Under the pieces are notes generated by a model. The model saw only the letters and a program-made list of their open reading frames with translations, had not been told where the DNA came from and did not search any database. The position numbers were made by a program, and so were the translations under genes. A stretch of 55,500 nt of DNA from an uncultured Gemmatimonadaceae bacterium (GTDB taxonomy: Bacteria > Gemmatimonadota > Gemmatimonadetes > Longimicrobiales > RSA9): positions 1 to 55,500 of the forward strand of contig CAZSBL010000004.1 of NCBI GenBank assembly GCA_964605205.1. Direction: 5' to 3'. Every line of letters starts with the position of its first letter. The stretch's first letter is position 1. This document shows, in pieces, positions 6,626-55,381 of this stretch.

Positions 6626-6717
6626 CTCCTGCCTCGCGGCCCGTCGGACCGCGCTGAAGTCCTCGATTCACGCCATGGGTACACCGAACGCCGCGCACCG
6701 TTTCGTCCGCCGCGGTT

Positions 6718-7869: not shown

Positions 7870-8066
7870 GCGGGTGCCTCCACCGGCGAGGGCTGACAAG
7901 GGATCGGTAGAATCTAGGGTGACGACGCCCGGTTGGAAAAGGGAAAGAGAGACTTGCAGGGGGTCCGGGCGCGGGCCATCTTGGAGGCTCGACCTGTGGG
8001 CACCGATTACCCGAGTCCCCGCACCTCTCCCTGATCCCCGCGGTTGCTGACACCCTTACGACGATT

Positions 8067-9002
8067 ATGCACGATGAGGTGAGACCAGAGACGGCCGGCG
8101 TCCCCGGCGGGCGCGAGCCCGCGCCGGGCCCCACGCTGAGTGCCACGTGCTGGGGCACGCGGGGCTCGATCCCGAGCCCGGGCCCGGCCACGGCCCGCTT
8201 CGGCGGCAACACCTCGTGCCTCGAGATCCGGACCGATGACGACCGGTGCCACATCTTCGACGCGGGCACCGGGATCCGGGTGCTGGGCAACCGCCTGTCG
8301 CAGGAGGATGGTCCGACCAACGTGAACCTGTTCGTGACCCACTTCCACTGGGACCACATCCAGGGGATCCCGTTCTTCGGCCCCCTCCACGCGCCGGGCA
8401 GCTTCATCCGGATCCACGCCGCCCGGCAGGGCGAGCTGGACATCGAGACGCTGCTCAGGGGGCAGATGGGGCCCGTGTACTTTCCGGTGCCGTACGAGGC
8501 GCTGGCGGCGGACCTCTCGTTCGAGCACCTGTCGGGCAAGCCGTGGCACGACAACGGGACCGAGGTGGCGGCGTACCGACTCCGGCACGCGGCCCACACG
8601 TACGGCTACCGGATCACGGCGGGTGACGCGAGGGTGGCGTACATCCCCGACAACGAGCTGCTGGGATCGAGCTACCCGGTGGACGGGCCCGATTGGTACG
8701 ACGGGCTGCTCGGGTTCCTCGATGGCGTGGACGTCCTTTTCCACGACGCCATGTTCACCGAGGACGAGTACCCCGCTGTGGAAGGCTGGGGGCACAGCAC
8801 GTTCAAGCAGTCGGTCAAGCTCGCCGAAGACGCGGGCGTGAGACGGCTGTACTTCTTTCACCACGCACCCGAGCGCACCGACGCCGAGCTGCTGGGCATC
8901 CTCGACCGGATGCGCGAGGACGTGGAACGGCGCGGGTCCGGCCTCGAGCTGGGCGTCGCGGCGGAGGGCGAAGAACTCCTGGTTCAGGGAGGCGAATCGT
9001 GA
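8067..9002 (+). CDS. Metallo-beta-lactamase-fold hydrolase, putative cyclic-nucleotide phosphodiesterase
   Basis: WGTRGSIP..FGGNTSC, DAGTG, THFHWDHIQG, HDAMF, WGHS and FHHAP. The PDE role is inferred from the neighbouring genes. Confidence 0.85.
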   Translation: MHDEVRPETAGVPGGREPAPGPTLSATCWGTRGSIPSPGPATARFGGNTSCLEIRTDDDRCHIFDAGTGIRVLGNRLSQEDGPTNVNLFVTHFHWDHIQGIPFFGPLHAPGSFIRIHAARQGELDIETLLRGQMGPVYFPVPYEALAADLSFEHLSGKPWHDNGTEVAAYRLRHAAHTYGYRITAGDARVAYIPDNELLGSSYPVDGPDWYDGLLGFLDGVDVLFHDAMFTEDEYPAVEGWGHSTFKQSVKLAEDAGVRRLYFFHHAPERTDAELLGILDRMREDVERRGSGLELGVAAEGEELLVQGGES

Positions 9003-10930
9003 GAATCCGACATTTCCTGGTCCTGGCGGCCGTCACCCTGTTCGTGGCGTTCGGTCCGCCGGAGCGGACCTCGCCGGCGAAGTGGGCGCTGGTTATCGGG
9101 ATCAGCGACTACACCCACTTCGGCGACGAGATCGGCGGCGACCTGCCGGGCGCCGCCAACGACGCCCGGGCCATCGCCGACGTCCTGGTCAACAAGTATG
9201 ACTTCGCGCCGGGCAACGTGAAGCTGGTCCTCGACGGTGCCGCCACCCGGGCCCGGCTCGAGACGGAGATGACCGAATGGCTGCCGTCCATGGCCCGGCC
9301 CGGTGACCTGATCTGGTTCTACTTCGCCGGTCACGGCTCACAGGCGTGGGACCTCGATGGCGACGAGGAGGACGGCCTGGACGAGACCGTATGCCCCGCC
9401 GACGTGACCCGGGGCAACACCGAGATGGACATCCTGGATGACGAGATCGGCCAGTGGCTCGGCCAGCTGCCCACCGACAACGTGGTGGTGGTCTGGGACA
9501 AGTGCCACGCCAAGAGCAGCACCCGGGCGGTGACGCCGTTCGCCCGGCCCCGATCCCTCGACCGGAACGTGAAGGAGGACGTGGCCAAGCCCGAGGGCGC
9601 CACCGAGGGCCAGGTGGTCCAGGCCACCGAGGATGCCGGCGGCACCGGCACCGGCGTGCTCGAGATCGCGTCCGCCCAGGCCGACGAGGTGGCCATGGAC
9701 GTGGCGTTCCAGAAGCAGCCCGGGCAGGCCACCTTCGGCGGCGCGTTCACCACGCCGTTCGTGGAGAACATGTGGAACGCCCGGGACGGCGCCACCTACG
9801 ACGAGGTCTTCAACCAGACCAAGAGCGCCATGCGGCGGGATCGGCGGCAGCAGCAGCCGGCCATCGATGACAAGTCGCTGAAGGACCGGCCGCTGTTCTG
9901 GGTCGAGACGGCGCAGCCCACGGAGGCGCCGCCGGAGGCGGAGGCCTCGCCGGTGGAGCGCGTGTACGGGATGGCCCGGATCCTCGAGCTGCCGTCGGAG
10001 ACGCGGGCGATCCTGGCCGGCGGGTTCAACGCCGACATGACCGTACGGTCGCTCTACCGCGCCGGTGATGACTTCCTCGAGATCACCGATGTGGACCCGG
10101 ACCGGGCCGAGGCCCGGGTCGCCACGCGGGAGACCCGGGGGATCGGCGTGAGCCGCGTGGGCGCGCTGGCCGAGGGTGGCCTCGCCCGGCTGGTGGCGTA
10201 CCGCTACCCGGACGCCATGCTCCGGGTCATGGTCGGCGACCTGCCGGATCAGGTCCAAGCGCGGCTGCGCAGTGAGCTGGTCAGCGTGCCGGCGCTGGTG
10301 CTGATCTCTGATGCCATCGACTTCTCACACCTCCTGGTCCGCCCCCGGAACAACCACTTCGTGGTCCTCAATCTCGACGGCTTCCCCCGGGACTCGGTCC
10401 CGGCCACCGATGGCGCCGCGGGGCTCGCTGAGCTGCTGAAGCGGGAGTTCGGCCAGTACCAACTCACGGAGCTGGAGAACCCGGGCCAGCCGTTCGAGGT
10501 GGAGTTCGCGTTCGGCAACGGTCGCACCGACTTCCAGCTCGGCGAGACCGTCTCGTTCCAGGTCACCTCGGAGCGGGAGGGCTACCTGACCATCGTGGAC
10601 CTGGCGCCGGACGGGACCGTCAGCGTCATCTTCCCGAACGAGTACGTGGCCGAGAACAAGGTCTACGCGGGCCGGATGATGGAGTTCCCGGCGCCGGAGA
10701 TGGACCTCCAGTTCACCGCCATCGAGCCCGCGGGCCGGGGCGTGGTCCGGGCCTTCGTGACCGAGCGGCCGCTGGTCATGCCGTTCGCTCAGGGCGCCGA
10801 CGCCACGGAGGCCAGCCGGATCTGGACGGCGCTGCGCAACGCGGCCGGCCGGGCGCCGATCCAGGGCAGCGACGCCATCCCGGTCCACAACTGGGCCACG
10901 GCGGCCATCGTGTACGAGATCCGGCGCTAA
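8999..10930 (+). CDS. Exported peptidase C14 (metacaspase-like) with C-terminal DUF4384-like domain
   Basis: GTGA overlap with the MBL stop; hydrophobic leader VRIRHFLVLAAVTLFVAFG; KWALVIG, FAGHG (His), DEEDGLDET, WDKCH (Cys); C-terminus LGETVSF..EGYLTIVD..DGTVSVIFPN. Confidence 0.88.
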   Translation: MRIRHFLVLAAVTLFVAFGPPERTSPAKWALVIGISDYTHFGDEIGGDLPGAANDARAIADVLVNKYDFAPGNVKLVLDGAATRARLETEMTEWLPSMARPGDLIWFYFAGHGSQAWDLDGDEEDGLDETVCPADVTRGNTEMDILDDEIGQWLGQLPTDNVVVVWDKCHAKSSTRAVTPFARPRSLDRNVKEDVAKPEGATEGQVVQATEDAGGTGTGVLEIASAQADEVAMDVAFQKQPGQATFGGAFTTPFVENMWNARDGATYDEVFNQTKSAMRRDRRQQQPAIDDKSLKDRPLFWVETAQPTEAPPEAEASPVERVYGMARILELPSETRAILAGGFNADMTVRSLYRAGDDFLEITDVDPDRAEARVATRETRGIGVSRVGALAEGGLARLVAYRYPDAMLRVMVGDLPDQVQARLRSELVSVPALVLISDAIDFSHLLVRPRNNHFVVLNLDGFPRDSVPATDGAAGLAELLKREFGQYQLTELENPGQPFEVEFAFGNGRTDFQLGETVSFQVTSEREGYLTIVDLAPDGTVSVIFPNEYVAENKVYAGRMMEFPAPEMDLQFTAIEPAGRGVVRAFVTERPLVMPFAQGADATEASRIWTALRNAAGRAPIQGSDAIPVHNWATAAIVYEIRR

Positions 10931-10942
10931 GGCGGTAGCGGA

Positions 10943-13129
10943 ATGGAGCGGAAGCGGGCGGTCATCGCCGGCGTCATCGCGCTGCTGTCGGCCGTGGTGG
11001 CGTACGGGTTCACGCACATGCAGTTCTTCCAGCCGATCTTCGGGACCGCGGAGCAGACCACCCTCGACTGGCGGCAGCGGTTCTCCGCCACCGAGATGCC
11101 CCGCGACACCTCGGAGATCCGGCTGATCCTCTTCGATGAGGAGAGCGTGGCGGAGTGGCCGTACATGAGCCCCTTCCCCCGCAACGTCCTGGCCGACCTG
11201 ATCCGTGTGTCGTCGGCGTTCGCCGCCGCCGCCATCGGGCTGGACGTCTACCTCGAGCGCCGTTACCCCGAGCTGAACCCCGTGGGCGGCGGCGACGAGG
11301 CGCTCCGGGCGGCCATCGAGCAGGCCGGCAACGTTATCCTGGCCGCGCCCCTCGACCGGACCGAGGCGGGGGGGTGGGTGGCTCACCCGCCCGACCCGTA
11401 CTTCGCGGAGGTGGCGGCGGGCGTCGGCTACGCGGAGATCCCCACCGCCTTCGACGTGGTCTCCGAGGCCACCCTCTTCACCCGCACGGAGAACCGGGGC
11501 TTCGTCCCCGGCTTCGCCCTGGCCGTATACGCCCGGACCCGGGGGCTCGACCTCGACTCGCTCATGACCAGCATCGAGGAGAAGGGGTACCTCGACCTGC
11601 CGGGCCTGCCGGAGGAGTACGCCCGGGTGAAGCCCGATGAGGCGGTCCACAACATGAAGATCGTGTTCGCCGGCCCGCCCTCACGGCCGCACCTCGAGAC
11701 GGTGGACGCCAGCGGCGCCACCGCGAGCGAGGGCGAGTCCCCCGGCGCGTTCCGGGCGTTCTCGTCGCAGTCCATCTCCGCGTTGAGCGACCTGGTGGCC
11801 ATGGGCGTGGACCTGGGCGAGGCCTTCGACCTGCGGGGCCGGGCGGTCATGATGGGGAGCGGCTTCCACGCCGAGGAGAAGTTCAAGACCCCGTTCTACT
11901 TCGAGCCCGACGAGACGGGCGCCATCAAGGGGTGGATGTTCGGGACCGAGGTCCACGCCAACGCGCTCCACGACCTGCTGACGGCCACCTACCTTGAGCC
12001 GCTGAGCACCGCCCGGACCTTCTTCCTGCTCCTGATCCTGGCCGCCATCACCGCGGCGGTGGCGTTCACCGGTGGCGTGACGTGGGGCGCGGTGACGGCC
12101 GTGGCCCTCTTCCTGGCCGATGGCGTCACCGCCGTGGTGGCTTTCGACACCATGCACCAGCACATCCCCGTGGTGGGCCCGGCGCTGGCCGCCGGCTTCG
12201 CCTTCCTCGGCGCCACCTCCTACATCAGCATCATCGAGGGGAAGGAGAAGCGGGTCATCCGGAGCGCGTTCGGGAAGTACCTCTCCCCGGTGGTGGTGGA
12301 CGAGCTGGTGGCCGACCCGTCGCGCCTCAAGCTGGGCGGTGAGAAGCGGGAGCTCAGCATCCTGTTCAGCGACGTGGCGGGCTTCACCTCCCTCTCCGAG
12401 TCCATGGAGCCCGACGCGCTGGTGGCGCTGCTGAACGAGTACCTCGATGATATGGCGGACATCGTCATGAGCGAGGGCGGCACGCTGGACAAGTACATCG
12501 GTGACGCCATCATGGCGCTCTACGGGGCGCCCGCGCCGCTCCCGGACCACGCCGTCCGCGTCTGCCGCACGGCGCTCCGGATGCAGCGGCGGCTCGACCA
12601 GATGAACCAGCGTTGGGCCGAGCAGGACCGGCCCCAGCTCGGGATGCGGATCGGCGTCAACACCGGGCACCCCGTGGTCGGCAACATCGGCGGCGAGAAG
12701 CGGTTCGACTACACCGCCCTCGGTGACGCCGTGAACCTGGCCGCGCGGCTGGAGCCGGCGTGCAAGACGTACCGGATCCAGACCATGATCGCCCACGGCA
12801 CGAAGGAGGCCGCCGGCGACGCCATCCAGACCCGGGAGCTGGACCTGCTGGCCGTGTACGGCAAGGAGGAGCCGATCCCGGTCTACGAGCTGGTGGCGCT
12901 GGCCGGTGAGGAGCTGGGCGAGATGGGCGAGCTGATCGAGCAGTTCGAGAAGGGGATCGGCGCGTACCGGAACCGGGACTTCGAGATGGCCCGGCAGTAC
13001 TTCCAGGCCGCCCTCGAGATCGACCCGGACGACGGACCGGCCGAGCTGTACGTGCAACGATGCGACGAATACATGATCAACCCGCCGCCGGCCGAATGGG
13101 ACGGTGTGGAGCGGCGGCAGGTGAAATGA
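10943..13129 (+). CDS. CHASE2-domain class III adenylate cyclase with C-terminal TPR
   Basis: N-terminal TM, CHASE2-like region (IGLDV, GNVIL, GTEVHANAL), 3 TM helices, FSDVAGF, DKYIGDAIMA (Lys for ATP selectivity), YTALGDAVNLAARLE, TPR-like tail. Confidence 0.93.
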   Translation: MERKRAVIAGVIALLSAVVAYGFTHMQFFQPIFGTAEQTTLDWRQRFSATEMPRDTSEIRLILFDEESVAEWPYMSPFPRNVLADLIRVSSAFAAAAIGLDVYLERRYPELNPVGGGDEALRAAIEQAGNVILAAPLDRTEAGGWVAHPPDPYFAEVAAGVGYAEIPTAFDVVSEATLFTRTENRGFVPGFALAVYARTRGLDLDSLMTSIEEKGYLDLPGLPEEYARVKPDEAVHNMKIVFAGPPSRPHLETVDASGATASEGESPGAFRAFSSQSISALSDLVAMGVDLGEAFDLRGRAVMMGSGFHAEEKFKTPFYFEPDETGAIKGWMFGTEVHANALHDLLTATYLEPLSTARTFFLLLILAAITAAVAFTGGVTWGAVTAVALFLADGVTAVVAFDTMHQHIPVVGPALAAGFAFLGATSYISIIEGKEKRVIRSAFGKYLSPVVVDELVADPSRLKLGGEKRELSILFSDVAGFTSLSESMEPDALVALLNEYLDDMADIVMSEGGTLDKYIGDAIMALYGAPAPLPDHAVRVCRTALRMQRRLDQMNQRWAEQDRPQLGMRIGVNTGHPVVGNIGGEKRFDYTALGDAVNLAARLEPACKTYRIQTMIAHGTKEAAGDAIQTRELDLLAVYGKEEPIPVYELVALAGEELGEMGELIEQFEKGIGAYRNRDFEMARQYFQAALEIDPDDGPAELYVQRCDEYMINPPPAEWDGVERRQVK

Positions 13130-13146
13130 GAAAGGGGAGGGTCGCA

Positions 13147-14085
13147 ATGCGGTCCATTACACGAGCGGGATTCATGGTCCTGGCGCTCAGCGTGACAGCG
13201 GCGGCGTTGGCGGCCTCGCCGCCGGACCCGGTGGCGCTGTTGGTGAAGTTCAGCGGCGATGTATCCGTCCAGCTGGCGGAGACCGAGGAGAGCGTGGCCG
13301 GCGCCATCGGACTGGCCCTGGCGCCCGGTGACCAGGTGGTGATCGGCGAGGGGGCGGAGGCCATGGTCCTCTACAAGACCGGCCGGATGGTGAAGGCGGC
13401 GTCTACGGTCACCATCGAGGCGGTGGAGGCCGCGGAGGCCAGCAGCCTGTTCACCAACACCATGCGAACCCTCGGCCAGGTGGCCACCACCGACGCCCGG
13501 ACCCAGCCGAACCGCCAGGGGATGATCCGGCCCATCGCCGGCGCGCCCGTGCCCATAGCGCCCCGGAACGCCATCAAGGTCCTCGATGTCAGGCCCACCT
13601 TCACCTGGTTCAGCGTGGAGGGCACCGAGGAGTACATGATCCAGCTCCAGCGCCAGGGCGCAGACTCCCCCGCCCCCGTCCGCTGGCGCGCGGGCAGCGA
13701 CACCACCTGGACGCTCCCCAGCACCGAGCCTCCCCTCGTCCCCGGCGCCACCTACGTCTGGACCGTGGGCAGCCCCGTCGGCCGGGTGGCGGAGCCGAAG
13801 CACTTCACCGTGGCCTCCGCCGAAGACGTGGCTGCCGTGCAGGAGGCCATGCAGGGGCTCATCGGGGCCGGGATCGACCCGTCCACCGACGGACTCTTCC
13901 TCACCGCCCTGGCCTACCGCGATGCTGGCCTCCACTACGAGGCCTACGGCGCCATCCGGGCCATCGAGGAGGCCGGCAACGGCAGCGGACACGCCTTCTT
14001 CATGCTGAAGGGCGAGGTGCTCGACGCCCTCGGCATGGTCGACGACGCCGCCGAGGCCTTCGCCAGGGCCGAGGACGCCGGCTGA
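13147..14085 (+). CDS. Exported protein, FecR-like N-terminus plus DUF928-like C-terminus
   Basis: Signal peptide; GDVSV..LAPGDQVVIGEGAEA (FecR-like); RPTFTW, LVPGATYVWTV and ALAYRDAGLHYEA recall DUF928. Confidence 0.6.
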   Translation: MRSITRAGFMVLALSVTAAALAASPPDPVALLVKFSGDVSVQLAETEESVAGAIGLALAPGDQVVIGEGAEAMVLYKTGRMVKAASTVTIEAVEAAEASSLFTNTMRTLGQVATTDARTQPNRQGMIRPIAGAPVPIAPRNAIKVLDVRPTFTWFSVEGTEEYMIQLQRQGADSPAPVRWRAGSDTTWTLPSTEPPLVPGATYVWTVGSPVGRVAEPKHFTVASAEDVAAVQEAMQGLIGAGIDPSTDGLFLTALAYRDAGLHYEAYGAIRAIEEAGNGSGHAFFMLKGEVLDALGMVDDAAEAFARAEDAG

Positions 14086-14093
14086 CCGGACGC

Positions 14094-16061
14094 ATGCACA
14101 CCGCCGCGGCGGAGCGCGCGGTCCTGCTGCACGGGGCCGCCTTCGACACCACCGGGATCGCCGACGCCCTCGAGGCCGAGGGCGTCGGTGTCCGCACCGC
14201 CGTGGACCTCACCGCCATCGAGTCCGACCTGCCCGCCGTGCTGCTCATCGACCGGCGGCACGTCGAGCAGGCCCAGGACCTCACCGCCACGCTGGACCCC
14301 CTCCCTGCCGGCGTGGCGGTGATGGCCTGGGGCGAGGCCGCCGAGCGGGCCGTGGGTGGCCATGACCGCTTCTTCATGGCCCTCCCGGAGACCGCCGATG
14401 ACCGCACGGTCCTGAAGGCGCTCCAGGCTGCCCTCCGCCACGCCACCGCGGAGCGGGGCCGCGCCCGCATGGAGACCGAACTCGAGAAGAGTCGGGGCGA
14501 GCTCCAGGAGCTGAGCCAGATCGGGATGGCGCTCATGACCGAGCGAGACCCCGACCGGCTCCTGGAGAAGATCCTGGACCGGGCCATGGCCATGACCGGC
14601 TCCGATGGCGGCAGCCTCTACCTGGTGGAAGACGAGCCCGAGGGCGACAACCAGCGGCTCCGGTTCAAGCTCTCGGAGACCCGGTCGCTCCCCGACCTTC
14701 CGGCCATCGAGTTCACGCTGCCCATGGACCAGACCTCCATCGCCGGCTACGTGGCGGTGAACAACCAGGCGCTGGTCATCGAAGACGCGTACAGCATCCC
14801 CGAGTCCGCCCCGTACTCCTTCAACCGCGGCTTCGACCGGGAGTACGGCTATCGGGCCAAGTCCATGCTCGTGGTCCCCATGGCCGACCACAAGGACGAG
14901 GTGGTGGGCGTCCTCCAGCTCATCAACCGGAAGCGCGACCCCGAAGCTCTGATCCGCGACGAGGCGTCGGCGGCCGAGCACGTCCTCTCCTACGGCCGCC
15001 GCGAGCTCGACCTGGTCCGCGGCCTGGCCGGACAGGCCGCCGTCTCCATCGAGAACGCGCGCCTCTACGAGCAGATCGAGGACATCTTCGAGTCCTTCGT
15101 CCGCGCCGCCGTGGCCGCCATCGACCAGCGGGACCCCACCACCGCCGGTCACTCCGTCCGCGTGGCCGCCCTCACCACCCGCATCGCGGAGGTCCTGCCA
15201 CGCCTCTCCACCGGCCGCTGGGCCGGGACCCGCATGAGCCGGGAGCAGATGAAGGAGCTCCGCTACGCCGCTCTCCTCCACGACTTCGGCAAGGTCGGCG
15301 TCCGCGAGGAAGTCCTGGTCAAGGCCCGGAAGCTCCCGCCCTACCTCTGGGAGCGCGTGGACGCCCGCTTCGACATCATCCACCGGACCATCGAGCGCGA
15401 CTACCTGCGCAGGAAGCTCCGGGCGCTGGACCAGGGTGAGCTCGACGGGCTCGAGGCCGACCCCGAGTCCTACGACCGGGAGATGCGCGAGAGGCTCGAG
15501 CGGCTCGACGAGTGGCGCGAGACCGTCCACCGGGCCAACGAGCCCTCCATCCTCCCCGAAGAGGGCGAGGCCCTCCTCAATCTCATCGCTGGCGAGACCT
15601 TCGAGAACGTTGACGGAGAGGAGGAGCCCTACCTCCACGACCAGGAATACAGCTACCTCTCCATCCCCAAGGGCAGTCTGAACGAGCGGGAGCGGAAGGA
15701 GATCGAGAGCCACGTCACCCAGACCTACAACTTCCTGACCCAGATCCCGTGGACCGAGGAGCTGGGCGACGTGGCCTTCATCGCCTGGGGGCACCACGAG
15801 AAGCTCAGTGGCAAGGGCTACCCCCGGGGCGTGACCGGCGACGAGATCCCCGTCCAGACCCGGATGATGACCATCGCCGACATCTTCGACGCCCTCACCG
15901 CCGCCGACCGGCCCTACAAGAAGGCCCTCGGCGCCGACCGCGCCCTCGAGATCCTCCAGATGGAGGCCGCCGACGGCGACCTCGACACCGACCTCGTCAC
16001 CCTCTTCATCGAGTCCGGGGTCTACCGGGAGGTCCTGGAGACCGACTGGCGAGAGCTGTAG
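14094..16061 (+). CDS. GAF and HD-GYP domain phosphodiesterase with degenerate receiver-like N-terminus
   Basis: GAF (SIAGYVA, KSMLVVPM, VVGVLQLIN, LAGQAAVSIEN); GHSVRVA, LLHDFGK, HHEKLSGKGYP, IADIFDAL. Confidence 0.92.
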   Translation: MHTAAAERAVLLHGAAFDTTGIADALEAEGVGVRTAVDLTAIESDLPAVLLIDRRHVEQAQDLTATLDPLPAGVAVMAWGEAAERAVGGHDRFFMALPETADDRTVLKALQAALRHATAERGRARMETELEKSRGELQELSQIGMALMTERDPDRLLEKILDRAMAMTGSDGGSLYLVEDEPEGDNQRLRFKLSETRSLPDLPAIEFTLPMDQTSIAGYVAVNNQALVIEDAYSIPESAPYSFNRGFDREYGYRAKSMLVVPMADHKDEVVGVLQLINRKRDPEALIRDEASAAEHVLSYGRRELDLVRGLAGQAAVSIENARLYEQIEDIFESFVRAAVAAIDQRDPTTAGHSVRVAALTTRIAEVLPRLSTGRWAGTRMSREQMKELRYAALLHDFGKVGVREEVLVKARKLPPYLWERVDARFDIIHRTIERDYLRRKLRALDQGELDGLEADPESYDREMRERLERLDEWRETVHRANEPSILPEEGEALLNLIAGETFENVDGEEEPYLHDQEYSYLSIPKGSLNERERKEIESHVTQTYNFLTQIPWTEELGDVAFIAWGHHEKLSGKGYPRGVTGDEIPVQTRMMTIADIFDALTAADRPYKKALGADRALEILQMEAADGDLDTDLVTLFIESGVYREVLETDWREL

Positions 16062-16140
16062 ACTGGCGGGGCCGCGTTCGCGTGGGGCGGCCCGGATCCC
16101 TCGGGGATCCCCGATGAGGAGATCGCGGGCTGACCGCCGG

Positions 16141-16545
16141 CTACGGCTCCACCACCACGCCCAGCTCCCGGCCGGTGCCGTCCCGCCCCCGGACCCGGAT
16201 CGTGGCGGCGCCCGGCGCGTCGAACCGCAGCTCCGCCGTGTGCTCCGGGTACACCACCGCCTGGTGGCACGCGGTGTTCGGGTCCTCGTCCCGCCGATCG
16301 AAGTCGTACGGGGAGATCACGGCCACCAGGCCGTCCCCCGAGACCTCCGTGTGGTCCTTCCGCCAGCACCCGTTCGGGCCGGTGGTGGTGACCGTGACGG
16401 TGAACGACTGGCCCACCGCCACCGTGTCCGGTGCCGCCACCTCCACCACGTAGCCCAGCACCGGGTCCGGCTCCGTGGATGCAACGTACGGGACGGGGCG
16501 GTTCTGTCGAGAGCGAGGCCGGCGAGCTCGCCGGCCTCGCCTCAT
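16141..16545 (-). CDS. Hypothetical Ig-like secreted/lipoprotein-type protein, apparently lacking its signal peptide (possible 5'-truncated pseudogene)
   Basis: The body (APDTVAVGQSFTVTVTT.GPNGC..TAC) has normal codon usage and a Cys pair. The N-terminus MRRGRRARRPRSRQ runs through a perfect palindrome and is not hydrophobic. Confidence 0.5.
   Translation of the reverse strand: MRRGRRARRPRSRQNRPVPYVASTEPDPVLGYVVEVAAPDTVAVGQSFTVTVTTTGPNGCWRKDHTEVSGDGLVAVISPYDFDRRDEDPNTACHQAVVYPEHTAELRFDAPGAATIRVRGRDGTGRELGVVVEP
16513..16540. repeat. Perfect 28-bp palindrome
   Basis: GCGAGGCCGGCGAG followed directly by CTCGCCGGCCTCGC. Confidence 0.9.
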
Positions 16546-16584
16546 GCGCCTACCCCACCGCGCCAGCATCCAGCCAGGCGGCTG

Positions 16585-16977
16585 TTACTCCGGGTGCCGG
16601 GACCGGACGAGCCATGCTGTCGCCAGGAACAGGCCCAACCACACCGCGGTCCGAAAGGTCATCGCCCAAAGACTGTCTACGGCGACGCCCCCGCCACTCC
16701 GGTAGACGGCGAGGGTGGCTACGAGTACGAGGAGGTTGAGCAGGAAGACGGCTGTTGCCGCGTACCGGCCCGCATGGACGCTGTGCCAGACCGTGACGCC
16801 CGCCGCAACATACGCCCCGCCCATGACGGTGTTGTAGATCAGGAGAGGTCGAAACACCGGGTACCCCGGGTCGGCACCCATGAACACGCGGCTACCGGCG
16901 AAAAGCGTGGCGATACCGAACAGAACCGCAACGGCGGCCGCGAGCACCTGAACGTTCCGGACCGAACGGGCCGCCAT
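16585..16977 (-). CDS. Hypothetical integral membrane protein
   Basis: About four hydrophobic segments; TGATG overlap with the upstream gene. Confidence 0.75.
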   Translation of the reverse strand: MAARSVRNVQVLAAAVAVLFGIATLFAGSRVFMGADPGYPVFRPLLIYNTVMGGAYVAAGVTVWHSVHAGRYAATAVFLLNLLVLVATLAVYRSGGGVAVDSLWAMTFRTAVWLGLFLATAWLVRSRHPE

Positions 16978-17510
16978 CAGGCCCGTACCTTCCGCCATAG
17001 CGAGGCGAGGGCGGGTCGGACCGCAAAATGGGCGGCAGCGGATAGGGCGGCGGCGACGGACGCGGCGATCGACGGCAGCACCGAGCCGAAGACGAATGTC
17101 ATGCCCAGTACGAACCCGAAAACGTACTCCGCCCGGTAGACCGGAAGAACGACGCCGGAGGCCAGTGCCCCGAAGAAGATACCCGAGGAGACCGACTCGT
17201 ACCCCGCTGCGAATGACGCGGAGAGCGCGATTCCGACCAGCACCGCACCTGCAAACCCCGCCATGGCCCTGGCTGCAGCGCCTTCGTTGGCTCGGGCACG
17301 CCTGGCGACCACGCGGGACGCCAGCCAGCCCAGCGCGGGAAGGATCAGCAGACCCCACCAGTTGGAAATCGCCGGCAGGTCATCACGTGCAAGCAGGTGG
17401 TGGCTCCCGACGCCCCCGTGCGCGATTTCCCACCCGAGATGGAGTGCGGCTGCCAGGAAGGCGAGGCCCAGCCCATAGGGCAGAAGGCCGTGGGTCTTTC
17501 GGTTTGCCAT
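16977..17510 (-). CDS. Hypothetical integral membrane protein
   Basis: AGGAG RBS; multiple TM segments; HHLLARDDLPAISNWWG and LPVYRAEY motifs. Confidence 0.8.
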   Translation of the reverse strand: MANRKTHGLLPYGLGLAFLAAALHLGWEIAHGGVGSHHLLARDDLPAISNWWGLLILPALGWLASRVVARRARANEGAAARAMAGFAGAVLVGIALSASFAAGYESVSSGIFFGALASGVVLPVYRAEYVFGFVLGMTFVFGSVLPSIAASVAAALSAAAHFAVRPALASLWRKVRA

Positions 17511-17719
17511 GATCACTCCTCGGACCGGAGCGAGAGGTCGCCCCTTGCGCTCGACCTTCGCTGGTGACGATACGCCCCCCGGGCTGATCAGCCAAGCGGT
17601 TCAACCCCCTGGCGCTGCCATTTGCGCGGCGCTGTGGCGGGGCGTTAGCGTGGGCTCGTACTCCCGATGGGACCCCACTCCAGCCGCCGGCCGGATCGAG
17701 GCCGAGGGAGGAAGCCGTC

Positions 17720-18949
17720 ATGAGTCGAGACCGTTGCGTTGGACCCGGCCGCCTGCACGCCGTCTTTCTCCTTACCGTCCTGGGGCTGGCCGCGTGCGGT
17801 GGGGATGCCGCCGACATGGCGCCCCGGGTCCTGGACGCGGCCGACGTCCGGGTGCTTGGCGGCTCGGACTCGGTGGCGGTGGTCCGTGACCTGGCGGTGC
17901 TGCCCGACGGCCGGGTGTGGGTCCAGAACTCCGTGGAGCCCCTCTTCGTCGGGTTCGACGCCGCGGGGCGGGTGACGGCGACGCGGGGGCGCCGGGGAGG
18001 CGGCCCGGAGGAGTTTCGGCTGCCGTCGGGGTTCGTGGTGGGCGGCGAGACGGCGTGGACATTCGACTCTCCGCGGCACGCGCTGATCCGGGTCGACGCC
18101 GACAGCCTGGTGGTGGTGCCGCTCCCCCGCGATGCGATCCCCCGGGGCAGCGTCACGCCCGGCGACGTCCTGTCGTTCGGGGCGCTGCGGACGGCGTGGC
18201 TTGGCGACGAGGTGGTCCTGCCCCGTCGTCGCACCCGGGACGATCTCCCGGCCACGCGCTACTGGACCACGATCTGGGACGCGGAGCTGGTGGCGCTGGA
18301 TCCGGCCACGGCGGCGGTCCGGACGCTCGTCTCACTGCCCGACGCCCTGGGCGACCTCGACGCCCACTTCGACGCGCTGAGCCCCGGTTTCCCGCCGTTC
18401 CCCCTCTGGGTCCGGCTCTGGACCGTATGCGGCGACGAGGTCCGGCTCCACGACTTCCGGCGGAACCGGGTGCGCGTCTTCTCCGCCGACGGCACGGAGC
18501 GCGACCCGATCCCCCTCCCGCCGCCGCCTCTCGGCGAGGTGACGCCTCGCCAGTTCGTGCGGGTGGCGTTCGACCTCATCGCCGCCGAGCAGGCCGGCGC
18601 GGTGCGGGAAGGGATGGGTGCCATGTCACCGGCGGACAGCGCCCGGCTCATCGAGGCCGCCGCGTCGCGGATCGACGCCGGCCCCGACCGCCTCGGCGGG
18701 GTCCTGCCCGGCTACGTGGACCTCCGCTGCGACGACGCCGGGGCCGTCTGGCTCCGGCCCCTGGACGTGGAGCGGGGTGGGCTCCACGGCGGCCCCATGT
18801 GGATCCGCGTGACCGCCGACGGTCGGGCCCGCACCGTCCGGTTCCCGGACCGCTTCGACCCCTACCGATTCACCGGCGACCGCGCCTGGGGCGTCCTGCG
18901 GAACGAGCTCGACGTGGCCGCCATCGCCTGGATCTCCCTGGACGGGTAG
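17720..18949 (+). CDS. Lipoprotein, probable beta-propeller (NHL/6-bladed-like)
   Basis: GGGAGG RBS; lipobox LAAC-GG; GRRGGGPEEF motif and C-terminal WGVLRNELDV typical of such propellers. Confidence 0.75.
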   Translation: MSRDRCVGPGRLHAVFLLTVLGLAACGGDAADMAPRVLDAADVRVLGGSDSVAVVRDLAVLPDGRVWVQNSVEPLFVGFDAAGRVTATRGRRGGGPEEFRLPSGFVVGGETAWTFDSPRHALIRVDADSLVVVPLPRDAIPRGSVTPGDVLSFGALRTAWLGDEVVLPRRRTRDDLPATRYWTTIWDAELVALDPATAAVRTLVSLPDALGDLDAHFDALSPGFPPFPLWVRLWTVCGDEVRLHDFRRNRVRVFSADGTERDPIPLPPPPLGEVTPRQFVRVAFDLIAAEQAGAVREGMGAMSPADSARLIEAAASRIDAGPDRLGGVLPGYVDLRCDDAGAVWLRPLDVERGGLHGGPMWIRVTADGRARTVRFPDRFDPYRFTGDRAWGVLRNELDVAAIAWISLDG

Positions 18950-19148
18950 CCCCCGGACCCCGAACTCGCCAGAAAAGGAAGGGGCCAGGCACCGGCAAGC
19001 CCGCCCCGCCGCAACCACCCCTCATCCCCTCATCGGGGTGCGAAGCGAAGGGGGCCACCCGCCGGCGAGTCTGCCCCGCCCGGATCGCCCCCCATCGCCG
19101 TCCACCGGCGACTCCGCCGGCTCTGCCGGCTGGCCCCTCTGCCGCCGA

Positions 19149-20906
19149 CTACCGGTCCGTATCAGCCCCCGCGCCCGCCACGGCCAGGGGGATATCCCCG
19201 AGCCCGGAGAACTGCGGGTTCTGGCGCCCGTCGGTGGCATCGCGGACGCCGCCCTTCACGTAGGTGGCGACCTCGACGAAGGTGACGATCCCGTTGCCGT
19301 CGGCGTCGGCGTCGCCGTTGAGTCCCTGGAGGATGTGGTGGGTGAAGACGCCGTGGCCGCCGGCCCAGCGAGCGTCCTCGAAGCTGAGCTCGTTGACGTC
19401 TGCGGCGGTGAGGGTGAGCCGGCGGGACGGGGTGAACAGGTCATTGAAGGAGCCACCGATGGGGTTGCCATCGATGGGGATGTCGGACTCGCCGGTGCCG
19501 GCGGAGTGGCAGGCGTCGGCGATGACCACCACGCGCTCGGCGGAGATCTGCCGCCGGAGCGCGGTCTTCACGTCCCACATGGGGAACCCGGTGGCCGCCA
19601 GCGCGTCGACGTCGGTGTCCACGGGGAAGAGGTAGAGGTTGTCGGGGCGGTCCGGGTCGGGGGCGCCGTGGCCGGCGAAGTATATGACCACGAGATCGTC
19701 CCAGTCGGCCTGCTGGAGGAAGACGAACATGGCCTCGCGCATGGCGGCGCCGGTGGCCTGCTCGTCGGTGAGCAGGAGGATGTGGTCCTCCTCGAACGGG
19801 CCGGCGGCGTCGGAGCGGAGGAAGTCGTGGATGGCGCGGGCGTCGTCATCGGCGTACTCGAGGTCGGGGATGAGCCCGTCGTCGTACTCGCCGATCCCGA
19901 TGACCACGGCCCAGCGCTCGTCGATCCGGGGCGACGCGAATGCGGTGCGGGTGTTCCCCTGGCCGTCGCGGGCGACGATCCGGACGGAGTCACGGTCCAG
20001 CGCCAGCGGCGTCCGGGCGACGAACCGCGAGGCCGGGCCCCGGGTGATCCCCAGCCGCTGGGCGTCGGCGGCGCTCAGCCGCTCGAGGGAGACGGGCTCG
20101 CCCTCCACCTCCACGGCCACATCGCTGCCGATGACCACGCCCTCGATCTCCACCAGGTTCGTGGCGTTCTGCCGGGCCTCGTGCTCGGTGCGGGAGATGA
20201 CGCCGATCCCCCGGGTGGCCATCTCGCTGTCTTCCATCGGCTCGACCCGGGTGCCGAGGATGGCGAGCCCGGGACCGCCGGTGCCGGCCTGGCCCACGGA
20301 CTCCTCCACGGAGCCGGGGTCGGGCTCGAAGTAGCCGCGGCCGGTCCAGCCGTTGGCCTCCCAGTCATTGACGATGCCGCCGAGGAAGCCGGTCTCGTTG
20401 ATGACCTCCTCGGTGGCGGCCCGGAGCGCGCCGTTCCGGGCGGCCTGGTCCGTGGCCTCGAGCTCGCGGCCGGCGCCGGTCGCGGTGGCCACCACGTTGC
20501 CCTGGTCGAGCCGGAGCGCCCGGAGCCGGACCTCGCCGGTGCCGGTCACCAGCGTACCCGAGATGGGGTCGGGGCTCGTGCCCCAGTCGGCCTGGCCCAG
20601 GATCAGGACCTGGGCGCCGAAATCGCGCCCGAGGCGGACGGCCGCGCCCTCGTCGCCGGCGAGCGCCGCCTGGACCAGCTCCCGCTGCGCGGCCGTGTGG
20701 GCCAGCGCCGGGTCCACCAGCGGGAACCCGGCCTCTACCAGGAAGGAGGTGAGCTCGCCCACGGTCACGCCCGCGCTCCCGTCCTCGGGCACGAACACCA
20801 GCGTGCGAGGCAGCTCGCTCTCGAATCGGATCTCCTGGGCGGCCACCGGCGTCGCGATGGTGCAGACGACGGCGATCAGCAGCCCCAGCGTTGCCATGCG
20901 GTTCAT
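19149..20906 (-). CDS. Exported protein, FlgT/CsgG-like N-terminus plus C-terminal peptidase C14 (metacaspase-like)
   Basis: Signal peptide; AVRLGRDFGAQVLILG; RWAVVIGIGEY, FAGHG, ADACHSAG, GHGVFT, DADGNGIVT. Confidence 0.88.
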   Translation of the reverse strand: MNRMATLGLLIAVVCTIATPVAAQEIRFESELPRTLVFVPEDGSAGVTVGELTSFLVEAGFPLVDPALAHTAAQRELVQAALAGDEGAAVRLGRDFGAQVLILGQADWGTSPDPISGTLVTGTGEVRLRALRLDQGNVVATATGAGRELEATDQAARNGALRAATEEVINETGFLGGIVNDWEANGWTGRGYFEPDPGSVEESVGQAGTGGPGLAILGTRVEPMEDSEMATRGIGVISRTEHEARQNATNLVEIEGVVIGSDVAVEVEGEPVSLERLSAADAQRLGITRGPASRFVARTPLALDRDSVRIVARDGQGNTRTAFASPRIDERWAVVIGIGEYDDGLIPDLEYADDDARAIHDFLRSDAAGPFEEDHILLLTDEQATGAAMREAMFVFLQQADWDDLVVIYFAGHGAPDPDRPDNLYLFPVDTDVDALAATGFPMWDVKTALRRQISAERVVVIADACHSAGTGESDIPIDGNPIGGSFNDLFTPSRRLTLTAADVNELSFEDARWAGGHGVFTHHILQGLNGDADADGNGIVTFVEVATYVKGGVRDATDGRQNPQFSGLGDIPLAVAGAGADTDR

Positions 20907-21574
20907 CGGCTTCCTCCTTCCACTCGCTCGAGAGCCGCGGCCGCGGCCTCGTGCCGTGGGAACAGCTCCAGTGCTCTGCGATACATCTCCGCGGCCCGGC
21001 CCTCGAGCCCCTGCTCCTCGTAGGCCAGACCCCGGGAATAGGCCAGGATCGCCTCGACGGGCGGCTCCGCGACGTGGCCGGCCACCCGGGCGGGCAGCTC
21101 GATCCCGTCGAGGAAGTCGTCGGTCAGCGCGGTGACCAGGTCGAGCATGGCGTCGCGCCGGCCCTGCTGCCGGCTCGCCTTCTCCACCGTGCCGCTGGCG
21201 GCGTCGAGCAGGCGCAGGTCGATCCGGACCCGCTCCGGCTCCAGCGCCACCGTCCCGATCACCAGGTAATCCGCGCCCAGCACCCGGGCCAGCTCCACCG
21301 CCCGGCTCTCGTCCATCCGGCCCGAGAGCGCCAGCTGCCGCGTCTGGATCAGCTGCTCGATCTGCTGCCGGTCCACCACCTTCACCACCGGCCGATCCGC
21401 CAGCTCTGTGGTGATCATCGACGCCAGACCACGCCCCACCGCGTCCGCGTCCTCACCCGTCAGACTGAAAACGTTGAAGTCGAACACGGCGATAGTCGGC
21501 ACCCGGGCGTCCTGCGCCGCCGCCGCCACTGGCAGCAGCGCCATGACCAGAGCCAGCACAAAACGTCGAACCAC
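20903..21574 (-). CDS. Exported CsgG/FlgO-like domain plus TPR protein
   Basis: GGAGG then GTG; signal peptide ending AAAQ; IAVFDF, VVDRQQI, ARVLGADYLVIG, C-terminal YRRALELFP TPR; ATGA overlap with the caspase gene. Confidence 0.8.
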   Translation of the reverse strand: MVRRFVLALVMALLPVAAAAQDARVPTIAVFDFNVFSLTGEDADAVGRGLASMITTELADRPVVKVVDRQQIEQLIQTRQLALSGRMDESRAVELARVLGADYLVIGTVALEPERVRIDLRLLDAASGTVEKASRQQGRRDAMLDLVTALTDDFLDGIELPARVAGHVAEPPVEAILAYSRGLAYEEQGLEGRAAEMYRRALELFPRHEAAAAALERVEGGSR

Positions 21575-21714
21575 GGGAACCTCCGCGCGAATCGCGTACC
21601 AGGGAGAGGGGAAAGCGCCCAAACAGGCAGAGCCTAAGTTAAGGTGCCGACGCGGATGGGAAAAGAAGATCGGCTCTTCGACACCTCGAGTGGGTCGTGG
21701 GCTCCGGAGGCACC

Positions 21715-21987
21715 GTCAACCGCGGAGCCGCGGAGGCGCGGAGCCCACGCGGAGAACTTCTTTTGAGTTTGATCCGGGCACGGCAGGTTGGGCGGCGGAA
21801 GACGCAAGCTCCGTGTGGCATCACGGAGGCCGGGTTCGGGTTCGCCCACACCAGCTGTCGCGGACGTTCTCCACCCGGAAAGGCAGCCTTGCCGGCCTCC
21901 CGCTGCTCCGCCGGCCGCGCTGCCTCACCGGAAAAGACAGAAAAAAACTCCGCGTATACTCCGCGTCTTTGCGCCTCCGCGGTTGAC
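21715..21987. repeat. MITE-like element bounded by 13-bp perfect inverted repeats with subterminal xxGCGGAG octamers
   Basis: GTCAACCGCGGAG at 21715-21727 and CTCCGCGGTTGAC at 21975-21987, with four octamer copies at each end. No target-site duplication seen. Confidence 0.65.
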
Positions 21988-22150
21988 CAGGCGCCCGCCC
22001 CGCCGCACACTCGGCAACCGCCCCGGCCCGTTTCACCCACACCAGCTGTCGAAGACCCAGAAGATCTGAGAACTCAGAATTGAACGGTTCTTGCCCTATG
22101 ACATTCCCGTGGCCAAGCTACGGGCGAACCGATGACGGGGAGGAGCCAGC

Positions 22151-22372
22151 ATGAAGGTGACGATCGAATATTGCGGGATGTGAAACTACCTGCCGCGAGC
22201 CTCCAGGATGGAGGCACGGATCAAGGAAGCGTTCCCGGGTGCCGACGTTGAGCTGATAGAGGCGGGGGGTGGCGTTTTCGAGGTGGAGAAGGACGGAGAG
22301 CTGATCTACTCGAAGAAGCGGACCGGCCGCCACGCCGAGTGGGAGGATGTCCGGGACAGGCTGGCCGAGTGA
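22151..22372 (+). CDS. SelT/SelW/SelH (Rdx) family selenoprotein, CxxU motif
   Basis: AGGAG RBS; MKVTIEYCGM-UGA-NYLPRA..GGGVFEV..DGELIYSKKRTGRH. In-frame TGA at 22181-22183; absent from the ORF track. Confidence 0.92.
22193..22219 (+). promoter_or_regulatory. Bacterial SECIS hairpin
   Basis: GCCTCCA-GGA-TGGAGGC stem-loop (22199-22215) with a CCG/CGG lower stem; the G-initial loop begins 23 nt after the UGA. Confidence 0.75.
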
Positions 22373-22385
22373 GGAGAACGCAGTC

Positions 22386-23471
22386 ATGAGCAAGCGCATC
22401 GCCATAAGCACCGGCGGCGGAGACGCCCCGGGGTTGAACGCCGTAATCCGGGCCGTGGTGCTGTCCGCGGTGAACCGGGGTTGGGAGGTCTACGGGATCC
22501 GGAAGGGCTACGGCGGGCTGCTGGGCGAGGACGAGATCGTGCGGCTCGACTCCCAGTCGGTCCGGGGGATCACGCACGTGGGTGGCACGATCCTGGGCAC
22601 CACGAACCGGGGCAACCCCTTCGAGTGGCCGGTGGAGGACGAGGGCGGGGTGGTCAAGGTCATCGACCGGAGCGACGAGGTCATCGAAGCGTTCCGGCAG
22701 CACGAGTTCGACGCCATGGTGGCCATCGGCGGCGACGGCTCGCTCCATATCGCCAATGAGCTGTGGAAGAAGGGGCTCCCGGTGGTGGGCGTTCCGAAGA
22801 CCATCGACAACGACCTGGCGGCCACCCAGGTCACCTTCGGGTTCCATACCGCGGTGCAGACGGCTTCCGAGGCCCTCGACAAGCTGCACTCCACGGCCGA
22901 GAGCCACGAGCGGGTCATGGTGGTGGAGCTCATGGGCCGCCACACCGGCTGGATCGCCCTGTTCGCCGGCGTCAGCGCCACGGCCGACGTGATCCTGATC
23001 CCGGAACTGCCGTACGACATCGAGAAGGTCTGCGACAAGATCCACGATCGGGACGCCAGCGGCCGCCTCTTCTCCATCGTGGTGGCGGCCGAGGGCGCGA
23101 AGCCGAAGGAGGGCTCGGCGTCGTTCGCGGAAGAGGCGAAGCCCGGGGCCGAGGCCCGCTACGGCGGGATCGCCGAGCGGGTCGCCCGGGAGATCTCGGA
23201 GCGGACGGGCAAGGAGACGCGGTCGCTGGTGCTGGGCCACCTCCAGCGGGGCGGCTCGCCCATCGCCTACGACCGGCTCGTCGCCCTCCGCTTCGGCGCC
23301 GCCGCCGCCCGCTACGTGGCCGATGGCGCCTACGGCACCATGGTGGCGCTGGACCCGCCCGGGGTCCGGGCCGTGCCGCTGGTCGAGGCCACCCGCCGGA
23401 CCAAGTCCGTGCCGCTCGACTCGGACGTCGTCACGACGGCCCGGGACCTGGGCATCTCGTTCGGGGACTGA
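22386..23471 (+). CDS. pfkA: 6-phosphofructokinase (mixed-substrate group III type)
   Basis: TGGGDAPG, GGTILGT, GGDGS (Gly, ATP type) with PKTIDND (Lys), MGRHTGW, LGHLQRGG. Confidence 0.95.
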   Translation: MSKRIAISTGGGDAPGLNAVIRAVVLSAVNRGWEVYGIRKGYGGLLGEDEIVRLDSQSVRGITHVGGTILGTTNRGNPFEWPVEDEGGVVKVIDRSDEVIEAFRQHEFDAMVAIGGDGSLHIANELWKKGLPVVGVPKTIDNDLAATQVTFGFHTAVQTASEALDKLHSTAESHERVMVVELMGRHTGWIALFAGVSATADVILIPELPYDIEKVCDKIHDRDASGRLFSIVVAAEGAKPKEGSASFAEEAKPGAEARYGGIAERVAREISERTGKETRSLVLGHLQRGGSPIAYDRLVALRFGAAAARYVADGAYGTMVALDPPGVRAVPLVEATRRTKSVPLDSDVVTTARDLGISFGD

Positions 23472-23502
23472 GCCGGCGGCGGCCGTGCCGCTCCCGGCGC
23501 CG

Positions 23503-23847
23503 CTAGTTGAGTCGGACCTCCACGCTCGAGCCCTGCTCCAGCACCACGGTCCGGCGGACCGTGCGGGTGTCCTCTTCGTCGGTGGCGACGATGGTGACGG
23601 TGGTGCCCATGCCACCGTCGAAGACGAAGCGTGACTCGGACTCGGCGGCCACGGTGCCCAGGAGGCGGGTGGCGGCGCCATCATCGTAGGAGACGATCAT
23701 GGGGTGCGGCATCTCGTTGATCACGGTCACGGCGTAGCGGGCGCCGAGGTCGCTGTCCATGGACATGCCGGCGCAGGCGGCGGTGAGGGTGAGGATCGCC
23801 GCGAGGGCCGGGAGTCGGAGTCGTCGCATAAGGGCCTGCTCGATCAT
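23503..23847 (-). CDS. Hypothetical lipoprotein
   Basis: Lipobox TAAC-AG after a hydrophobic stretch; ATGA overlap with the SDR stop. Confidence 0.75.
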   Translation of the reverse strand: MIEQALMRRLRLPALAAILTLTAACAGMSMDSDLGARYAVTVINEMPHPMIVSYDDGAATRLLGTVAAESESRFVFDGGMGTTVTIVATDEEDTRTVRRTVVLEQGSSVEVRLN

Positions 23848-24554
23848 GGGGTCCATTCCAGGGCGCGGAACCGCTCGCCGGTCACGCCGGATTCGTCGCT
23901 GGCCAGCCAGAGGAACACGCCGGTGGCGTCCTCGGGCGGCGCGGGCTTCATCGGGTCCTCGTCGGGGTACGCCTCGCGGCGCATCTCGGTCCGCAGCCGG
24001 CCCGGGTCCACGATATTGACGCGGATCCCGGCGTCTTCTTCTTCCAGCGCCAGGTTCTTCGACAGCGCCTCCACGCCCCACTTGCTGATGGCGTAGGCGC
24101 CCCAGCGGGCCCGGGCGATGTTCCCGACGCCGCTGGACACGTTGATAATGGAGCCCCGGCCGGCCTCGCGCATCCCCGGCAGCACGGCCAGCGTGGGGAT
24201 CAGAGTGCCGGTGAGGTTCACCTCGAGGACCTGGCGCCAGTCTTCGACGAGGTGCTCGCGGAGCGGGACCCGGGGGCCGAGGACCGATGCGTTGTTGATC
24301 AGCGTGCTCACCGGGCCGAACCGCTCGGCGGCCCGGGCCACCAGCGCCGCCACGTCACCCTCATGGGAGACGTCCACGGCGCCCCACTCGACCTCGGTGG
24401 TGTCCCGGAGCTTCCCGGCCACTTCGGCCATGGCCTCTTCGCCCCGGGCGCAGAGGACCAGGCGCGCGCCGGCGCCGGCGAACGCTTCGGCCAGCGCCCG
24501 GCCGAGCCCCCGGGACGCGCCGGTGATGAAGACCGTCTGGGCGGAGAGCATCAT
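23844..24554 (-). CDS. Short-chain dehydrogenase/reductase
   Basis: TGASRGLG, NNAS, NVSSG, YAISK, RVNIVDPG. Confidence 0.93.
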   Translation of the reverse strand: MMLSAQTVFITGASRGLGRALAEAFAGAGARLVLCARGEEAMAEVAGKLRDTTEVEWGAVDVSHEGDVAALVARAAERFGPVSTLINNASVLGPRVPLREHLVEDWRQVLEVNLTGTLIPTLAVLPGMREAGRGSIINVSSGVGNIARARWGAYAISKWGVEALSKNLALEEEDAGIRVNIVDPGRLRTEMRREAYPDEDPMKPAPPEDATGVFLWLASDESGVTGERFRALEWTP

Positions 24555-55366: not shown

Positions 55367-55381
55367 CAAGAATGATTCTCG
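55367..55381. promoter_or_regulatory. Fur-box-like operator upstream of the suf operon
   Basis: CAAGAAT-G-ATTCTCG with a perfect AGAAT-G-ATTCT core, similar to the site at 1696. Confidence 0.55.

Follow-up and report, generated by a model that had tools for sequence, protein, structure and literature searches.

Directly upstream of a phosphofructokinase (PFK) gene in this DNA lies a short reading frame whose codon 11 is TGA. We asked whether this frame is a functional gene in which the TGA specifies selenocysteine (Sec), a recently silenced relic of such a gene, a gene in which another residue is inserted, a leader placed before a shorter open reading frame (ORF), or an error in the sequence. 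The stretch analysed, which we call the window, is a whole contig of 55.5 kb with 71% GC that is present in microbial-mat metagenomes. The closest matches to its SelW-like protein (up to 89%) and to its PFK (91–92%) come from MAGs labelled Longimicrobiales, Gemmatimonadales or Gemmatimonadota, and the DNA belongs to an uncultured bacterium of a microbial mat, Longimicrobiales-like and within the Gemmatimonadota.

A SelW-like reading frame with an internal TGA

A preliminary description had proposed a hidden CxxU selenoprotein gene of the Rdx family at this site, pointing to a ribosome-binding site, a C-G-M-TGA motif, Rdx-like sequence beyond the TGA, a hairpin and a 13-nt gap before pfkA, and we found every one of these elements in place. 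The features on which the argument rests are as follows.

22139–22143, plus strand: GGAGG Shine-Dalgarno sequence of the SelW-like gene, read directly; the ATG at 22151 lies 7 nt further on
22151–22372, plus strand: probable SelW-like (Rdx / SelT-SelW-SelH family) selenoprotein gene, 73 codons plus stop, predicted product MKVTIEYCGMUNYLPRAS...RDRLAE
22172–22174, plus strand: Cys8 codon TGC, first residue of the CxxU redox motif, which aligns with the CxxC of solved Rdx proteins
22181–22183, plus strand: in-frame TGA, codon 11, the predicted Sec codon, identical in contigs of three independent runs
22193–22219, plus strand: bacterial SECIS-type stem-loop inside the ORF (core plus outer stem), assigned from fold energy and covariation
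22208–22372, plus strand: 54-aa stub ORF from Met20, taken from the ORF list, which is what ordinary gene callers report
22371–22376, plus strand: GAGGAG ribosome-binding site of PFK, read directly, which overlaps the SelW-like stop TGA at 22370–22372
22386–23471, plus strand: 6-phosphofructokinase of 361 aa, PfkA family, "mixed" group (PF00365, TIGR02483), with GGDGS and PKTIDND motifs

Translation of 22151–22372 on the plus strand gives MKVTIEYCGM, then the internal stop at codon 11, then NYLPRASRMEARIKEAFPGADVELIEAGGGVFEVEKDGELIYSKKRTGRHAEWEDVRDRLAE and the terminal stop. The motif runs in the order Cys8, Gly, Met, TGA (22181–22183), and after the internal TGA the frame stays open for 62 further codons, up to the terminal TGA at 22370–22372. 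Exactly 13 nt (22373–22385) separate this stop from the PFK ATG at 22386.

Profile searches were made with the internal stop replaced by Cys. The Pfam Rdx model PF10262 matches residues 2–71, across the TGA, with E = 1.1e-19 and 70.8 bits (cut-off 22.6), and TIGR02174 (CXXU_selWTH) gives 58.7 bits (cut-off 34.2). A score of 93.5 bits (cut-off 88) is reached with the NCBIfam equivalog NF041051, which is covered over positions 1–69 of its 70. Similarity to Rdx structures extends over the full length (Atu0228, 2FA8, 4e-9; MIEN1, 2LJK, 9e-9; mouse SelW, 2NPB, 2.6e-5), with C8 to U11 aligned to CTQC of 2FA8 and CEPC of 2LJK. C8-G-M-U11 comes right after "VTIEY", the N-terminal first strand, as the Rdx family leads one to expect, and homology to eight solved Rdx structures suggests a thioredoxin-like fold for the product. 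At the level of sequence, the gene has every feature of the SelW-like family and of bacterial Sec recoding.

Conservation of the TGA codon

A difference of one base would suffice to turn a TGC or TGT (Cys) codon into TGA by sequencing or assembly error. Between 21975 and 22700, however, there are zero differences among the corresponding contigs (X1–X3) of three independent microbial-mat metagenome runs, so the TGA is no assembly artefact, and the same TGA stands in 51 homologous loci from unrelated assemblies; we regard an error as already effectively refuted. A genetic code in which TGA is reassigned was also considered and is ruled out, since other genes of the window, and the SelW-like gene itself, end in TGA as a normal stop.

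The wider comparison comprised 53 related loci, found by scanning one genome per species with search patterns that did not require a stop codon. The codon at the Sec site is TGA in 51 of these and Cys in two (TGT in L039, TGC in L053), and Cys8 is invariant (53 of 53). The 51 loci have a common architecture, IEYCxx-stop-NY.PRA, in which both flanks of the TGA are conserved. The alignment with Cys-containing homologues that had been proposed as a check of the preliminary description places Cys at the Sec site in 2 of 53 loci, and the CxxC of the solved structures falls upon the CxxU of this gene. The loci span Gemmatimonadota, Marinimicrobia, Desulfuromonadales (Desulfuromonadota), Bacillota (Tumebacillus, Halalkalibacter and Desulforamulus), Chloroflexota, Actinomycetota, Acidobacteriota, Verrucomicrobiota and others; within Gemmatimonadota the same TGA is kept in 18 other species.

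One Gemmatimonadota copy departs from this pattern. At L056:529–747 (GCA_046128415.1, JBJSWC010040929.1), which corresponds to database protein P0001, the Sec codon is AGA (Arg), with the SECIS hairpin intact and PFK downstream. Either the AGA was introduced by sequencing, or this copy has very recently undergone an inactivating or escaping mutation; in both cases it illustrates that single copies can be mutated or mis-sequenced.

A covarying hairpin after the TGA

The core of the stem-loop is a perfect 7-bp stem (22199–22205 with 22209–22215; GCCUCCA-GGA-UGGAGGC, −10.7 kcal/mol) around a GGA loop at 22206–22208, and it is separated from the UGA by a spacer of 15 nt. An outer stem of 3 bp (22193–22195 with 22217–22219) extends the hairpin to 22193–22219 and brings its energy to −14.1 kcal/mol. 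Taken from a single sequence, such a hairpin is not unusual: the z-score of the 72-nt fold is 0.10, and 8–11% of the TGA triplets in this window of 71% GC have a 7-bp stem from +12 to +24. We therefore set the single-sequence hairpin aside as evidence and used covariation instead.

An ungapped alignment (A1) was made of the 45 nt from each TGA in 52 sequences. The hairpin occurs there at a fixed register with 90.5% of stem cells paired, and this value falls to 26–47% when, as a control, the 3' arm is slid by 1–3 columns. Cells in which both sides have changed in a compensatory manner number 48, as against 16.3 ± 2.6 in shuffled alignments (none of 500 shuffles reached 48) and 4–14 in the slid controls, and the covariation score is 0.442 compared to 0.188 in shuffles. 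The stem variants CCUCC/GGAGG, CCGUC/GACGG, CUGCC/GGCAG and CGGCC/GGCCG are compensatory even though the amino acids that they encode differ. The first base of the loop (column 26 of A1, window position 22206) is an invariant G. Rfam searches of the whole window at the gathering threshold, and of 21600–22420 at E ≤ 5, returned zero families, so that none of the bacterial SECIS families matched.

Selection on the codons before the TGA

The region ahead of the UGA was compared in the window and 18 Gemmatimonadota relatives. In 18 of these 19 copies an ATG precedes the TGA by exactly 10 codons, and a purine-rich ribosome-binding site is found at the matching place in the 18 related loci, while the sequence farther upstream is unrelated. 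Changes within the 10 codons are mostly at third positions (TAT/TAC, GAA/GAG, GGG/GGA/GGC). By the NG86 method, dN/dS of the gene is 0.09–0.30 against 14 relatives and 0.09–0.15 against the closest of them, and when the 10 pre-UGA codons are taken by themselves, each of the 14 comparisons has a dN smaller than dS. These 10 codons are under purifying selection.

This bears directly on the idea that the product is the 54-aa ORF that starts at Met20 (22208–22372), with the upstream ATG...TGA acting as a 10-codon leader peptide or as non-coding DNA. Most pipelines do call that ORF. The codons before the UGA nonetheless evolve as coding sequence, and Met20 is replaced by Leu in many relatives (ASRLEA, ASSLEA, AVSLTD), so that those copies have no start there. 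The stub also omits strand beta-1 and the entire CxxU motif that defines the family. Since Met20 is not conserved and the motif is absent, the stub cannot be the conserved product, and we consider this explanation highly improbable.

Selenocysteine machinery and the nature of the inserted residue

The window was searched for the genes of Sec decoding. ARAGORN found no tRNA, tRNA-Sec included, in its 55.5 kb, and tblastn with E. coli SelA, SelB and SelD gave no match to selA, selB or selD. For a contig of this size such absence is uninformative rather than negative. Nor was a second selenoprotein gene found in the window: a strict scan was empty, and four in-frame ORF junctions and a relaxed scan for TGA with redox motifs gave ordinary gene ends and off-frame noise only. 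Among the relatives, the SelW-like gene of Halalkalibacter lacteus (L040:4896–7671) is flanked by selD, on the opposite strand, and by selA, and in a Verrucomicrobiales MAG (L046:6264–6356) a tRNA-Sec gene follows directly after it. Sec machinery beside the gene in these two loci supports the case for the family and does not speak to the source genome. For the source organism itself we infer Sec decoding from the intact and selected UGA-SECIS arrangement.

Two ways in which the UGA might have another fate were weighed here. The lineage might have lost its Sec machinery so recently that the gene is a young, undecayed pseudogene in which the UGA ends translation after 10 codons. This would fit with a window in which the machinery was not found, with repeated losses of the SelW-like gene among related lineages, one of which (L059, below) may still have a decayed piece of it, and with the AGA at the Sec site of one relative. 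Such a relic is nevertheless unlikely, because the start codon, the ribosome-binding site, the 10 pre-UGA codons, the 7-bp SECIS stem with its loop G and the downstream frame are all intact, dN/dS is as low as 0.09–0.15 against the closest relatives, and the 18 other Gemmatimonadota species keep the TGA. Alternatively, the UGA could be read as a residue other than Sec, either Cys carried by a tRNA(Sec)-like tRNA or Trp by near-cognate decoding, to give a CxxC or CxxW product. Natural tRNA(Sec) variants charged with Cys have been described, and Sec as the residue inserted here is a prediction from sequence. We judge this very improbable, given that a SECIS-type hairpin with an invariant loop G is a SelB-dependent signal, that TGA at 51 of 53 loci against Cys codons at two would be odd if Cys were inserted, and that selA, selD and tRNA-Sec adjoin the gene in two relatives.

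We conclude that 22151–22372 is very probably (roughly 0.85) a functional gene that encodes a genuine bacterial SelW-like selenoprotein of 73 residues. The central proposal of the preliminary description, a CxxU Rdx/SelW-like gene hidden by a TGA, equipped with a bacterial SECIS and lying upstream of PFK, is borne out by the family profiles, the conservation of the TGA, the covariation of the hairpin and the selection on the codons before the TGA. Translation would start at the ATG at 22151, the stem-loop 22199–22215 with its invariant loop G (22206) would recruit SelB-GTP-Sec-tRNA(Sec) to the UGA at 22181, and selenocysteine would be inserted there in place of termination. The protein so made is predicted to be small and thioredoxin-like, with a selenenylsulfide redox centre at C8-G-M-U11, and its presumed role is that of a thiol/selenol oxidoreductase. 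Its gene would come first in a two-gene unit, ahead of the PfkA-family phosphofructokinase.

How the gene appears in databases

The preliminary description had also held that standard pipelines split or miss such a gene, and the databases agree with it. Among 110 database homologues most are 53–58 aa long, cover 71–74% of the query and start at MEARI..., and JGI and NCBI gene tables often give nothing or a stub at such loci. The JGI names for the stubs include "selenoprotein W-related protein" and "selT/selW/selH-like putative selenoprotein". A few "full-length" entries have W at the Sec position, which probably reflects TGA read as Trp in code-4 gene calls; the homologues with Trp at this site that derive from ENA are P0050, P0058, P0068, P0087, P0091, P0094 and P0097. 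If these entries are code-4 calls, selenoproteins are systematically mis-annotated in protein sets from metagenomes. The locus is a clean case of how routine gene calling cuts what is very probably a real gene to a functionless 54-aa stub or places Trp at the Sec position.

The adjacent phosphofructokinase gene

The downstream gene matches PF00365 with E = 7e-105 and TIGR02483 (PFK_mixed) with 436.1 bits, just over the cut-off of 430.55, and it has GGDGS together with PKTIDND, which we take to be the "mixed" PFK signature. PFK lies directly downstream of the SelW-like gene in all 19 Gemmatimonadota loci compared, 18 of them found through the SelW-like protein and the other being L056. The paired PFKs are orthologous (71–91% identity), on the same strand and at a gap of about 8–103 nt; the genes upstream of the pair differ, and the synteny downstream is broken by insertions. 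Outside Gemmatimonadota the pairing is absent among the related loci. In the window the pair has genes of the opposite strand on both sides and so forms a stand-alone two-gene unit, with these neighbours:

19149–20906, opposite to the SelW-like gene: caspase-domain protein, upstream
20903–21622, opposite to the SelW-like gene: CsgG-like lipoprotein, upstream
a hypothetical gene, then 23844–24554 (SDR), opposite to the SelW-like gene: downstream of PFK

Prediction over 21500–24000 gave neither terminator-like nor sigma-70-like sites. The spacer of 13 nt, the absence of a terminator-like site, the conserved adjacency and the overlap of the PFK ribosome-binding site with the SelW-like stop are circumstantial signs of a putative bicistronic transcript, and co-expression is likely where the SelW-like gene is present.

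That the SelW-like gene always accompanies PFK was considered as well and is rejected. Six PFK orthologues (73–80% identity) were picked on long contigs independently of SelW, and all six loci are without a SelW-like gene; in them PFK directly follows a divergent FeS_assembly_P gene. In a neighbour-joining tree of PFK, in which part of the positive labels were assigned by record matching, SelW-positive and SelW-negative lineages are interspersed. The simplest reading of these sequences would be an ancestral selW-pfk pair followed by repeated loss of selW, in agreement with the known "dynamic" loss of selenoproteins (PMC1794560).

One PFK locus without a SelW-like gene (L059:2381–2431, GCA_003242735.2) contains a weak match to the 3' part of the gene. 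It has the correct orientation, extends over 25–49 nt at 75–84% and lies about 70–120 nt before PFK, and it may be the decayed remnant of a lost selenoprotein gene.

An operon need not mean a shared function, as PFK orthologues are frequently without the SelW-like gene and have no invariant Cys. PFK as a redox target of the SelW-like protein is unsupported: the single Cys of the window PFK is conserved in just 12 of 16 orthologues. With PFK evidently working without the SelW-like gene, and with no invariant Cys to act upon, a direct redox partnership finds no support either. It is doubtful that the fixed placement of selW before PFK reflects a real functional coupling in which a Sec redox protein tunes or protects the committed step of glycolysis. 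In mammals SelW is reported to bind pyruvate kinase M2 (PKM2) (PMC10943047), which is a loose parallel and does not count as evidence. Were the coupling true, it would constitute a bacterial parallel to SelW-PKM2 and offer an initial way into what the Rdx family does; a functional selW-pfk pair would provide a testable clue to the role of Rdx/SelW proteins. The literature searched held nothing relevant on a bacterial SelW-PFK link or on Sec use in Gemmatimonadota, and the lineage-wide selW-pfk pairing is the sole element of this locus that we did not find described there.

Other features of the contig

The remaining genes of the window are ordinary chromosomal ones, among them the gyrA 3' end, ferritin, feoB, cyclase and GAF-HD signalling genes, aminotransferases and a suf operon. 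Several further observations were made along the contig.

An intergenic repeat element of roughly 330 nt (21672–22003) lies 150–480 nt upstream of the SelW-like ATG. It has 40-nt terminal inverted repeats (21715–21754 and 21948–21987) that are 83% complementary, its summed assembler depth in microbial-mat runs rises to 2000x compared to 6–10x in the flanks, and it splits assemblies into many short variant contigs. No second copy was found in the window or in the related loci. It looks like a multi-copy repeat of the MITE type.

A block of ~15 kb (6700–21650) separates FeS_assembly_P (6326–6667, minus strand) from selW-PFK, and in seven related contigs (L056–L062) FeS_assembly_P and the genes of the selW-PFK locus are direct neighbours. 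The block contains a SpoIIE/cNMP-binding phosphatase, two caspase-domain (Peptidase_C14) proteins, one of them with DUF4384, a CHASE2 adenylate/guanylate cyclase, a GAF-HD protein, the CsgG-like lipoprotein and several proteins without a family match; its last two genes are common to L003 and L004. Possibly the block is an island, of signalling or caspase type, that was inserted here.

At 5029–5159, within DNA that is otherwise 71% GC, there are palindromic direct repeats rich in AT, in two copies 63 nt apart (GGGGACTT..ATACACATATCGTA..AAGTCCCC), and a related motif, GTCCCCAGACAA, is found at 55325–55368, close to the other end of the window. Such sequences might serve as operator sites or represent hairpin repeats of intergenic DNA. 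A large protein encoded at 40171–42633 (minus strand) has RCC1 repeats, as in an RCC1-like beta-propeller, and a Big_2 domain; its internal DNA repeats of roughly 150 and 300 nt make up repeat families D1 and D9.

Comparison with known systems

In marine metagenomes no prokaryotic selenoprotein family is more abundant than the SelW-like proteins (PMC1088965, PMC2398784). They are a documented Sec family with few Cys forms and a presumed redox role, and members are known from Geobacter, Desulfotalea, Symbiobacterium and others (PMC1088965, PMC2398784, PMC1794560). The bacterial SelW-like proteins of the Sargasso Sea and GOS selenoproteomes belong to the same Pfam/TIGRFAM family as the protein described here and have the same N-terminal IEYCxxU; they too are small (about 70–85 aa among the relatives compared here), their Sec forms far outnumber the Cys forms, and their SECIS lies within the ORF and has a small apical loop with G, as it does in this gene. 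The papers found on them make no mention of a Gemmatimonadota host or of a position next to PFK, and there is no difference in kind. The score against NF041051 (SelTWH_Campy, "SelT/SelW/SelH family (seleno)protein") is barely over the cut-off; that model is named after Campylobacter, and the phylum of the present host is distant from it.

More remote relatives differ in several respects. The Cys-type bacterial Rdx structures (Atu0228, 2FA8; SAV_2001, 3DEX; 2OJL, 2OBK, 2OKA, 2P0G) have the same domain, which corresponds to residues 2–71 here, but are proteins of about 100–108 aa with Cys, whereas the present one has 73 aa with a predicted Sec and is of a different subfamily. Mammalian selenoprotein W (2NPB) and MIEN1/C17orf37 (2LJK) have a homologous thioredoxin-like Rdx domain with CxxU or CxxC at the same position, although their similarity to the protein here is low (E = 1e-5 to 1e-8). 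In eukaryotic SelW the SECIS is of a different type and lies in the 3'-UTR (PMC1088965), unlike the hairpin within the ORF here. Compared with the SECIS of E. coli fdhF, the present hairpin is unrelated in sequence and has no bulged U in its upper stem, and its binding by SelB is putative.

With the annotation corrected, Gemmatimonadota/Longimicrobiales join the lineages in which selenocysteine appears to be used. The biological gain is modest, since the SelW-like family, the CxxU motif and Sec recoding are all textbook; the SelW-like gene is an ordinary member of a well-known family in a little-studied phylum.
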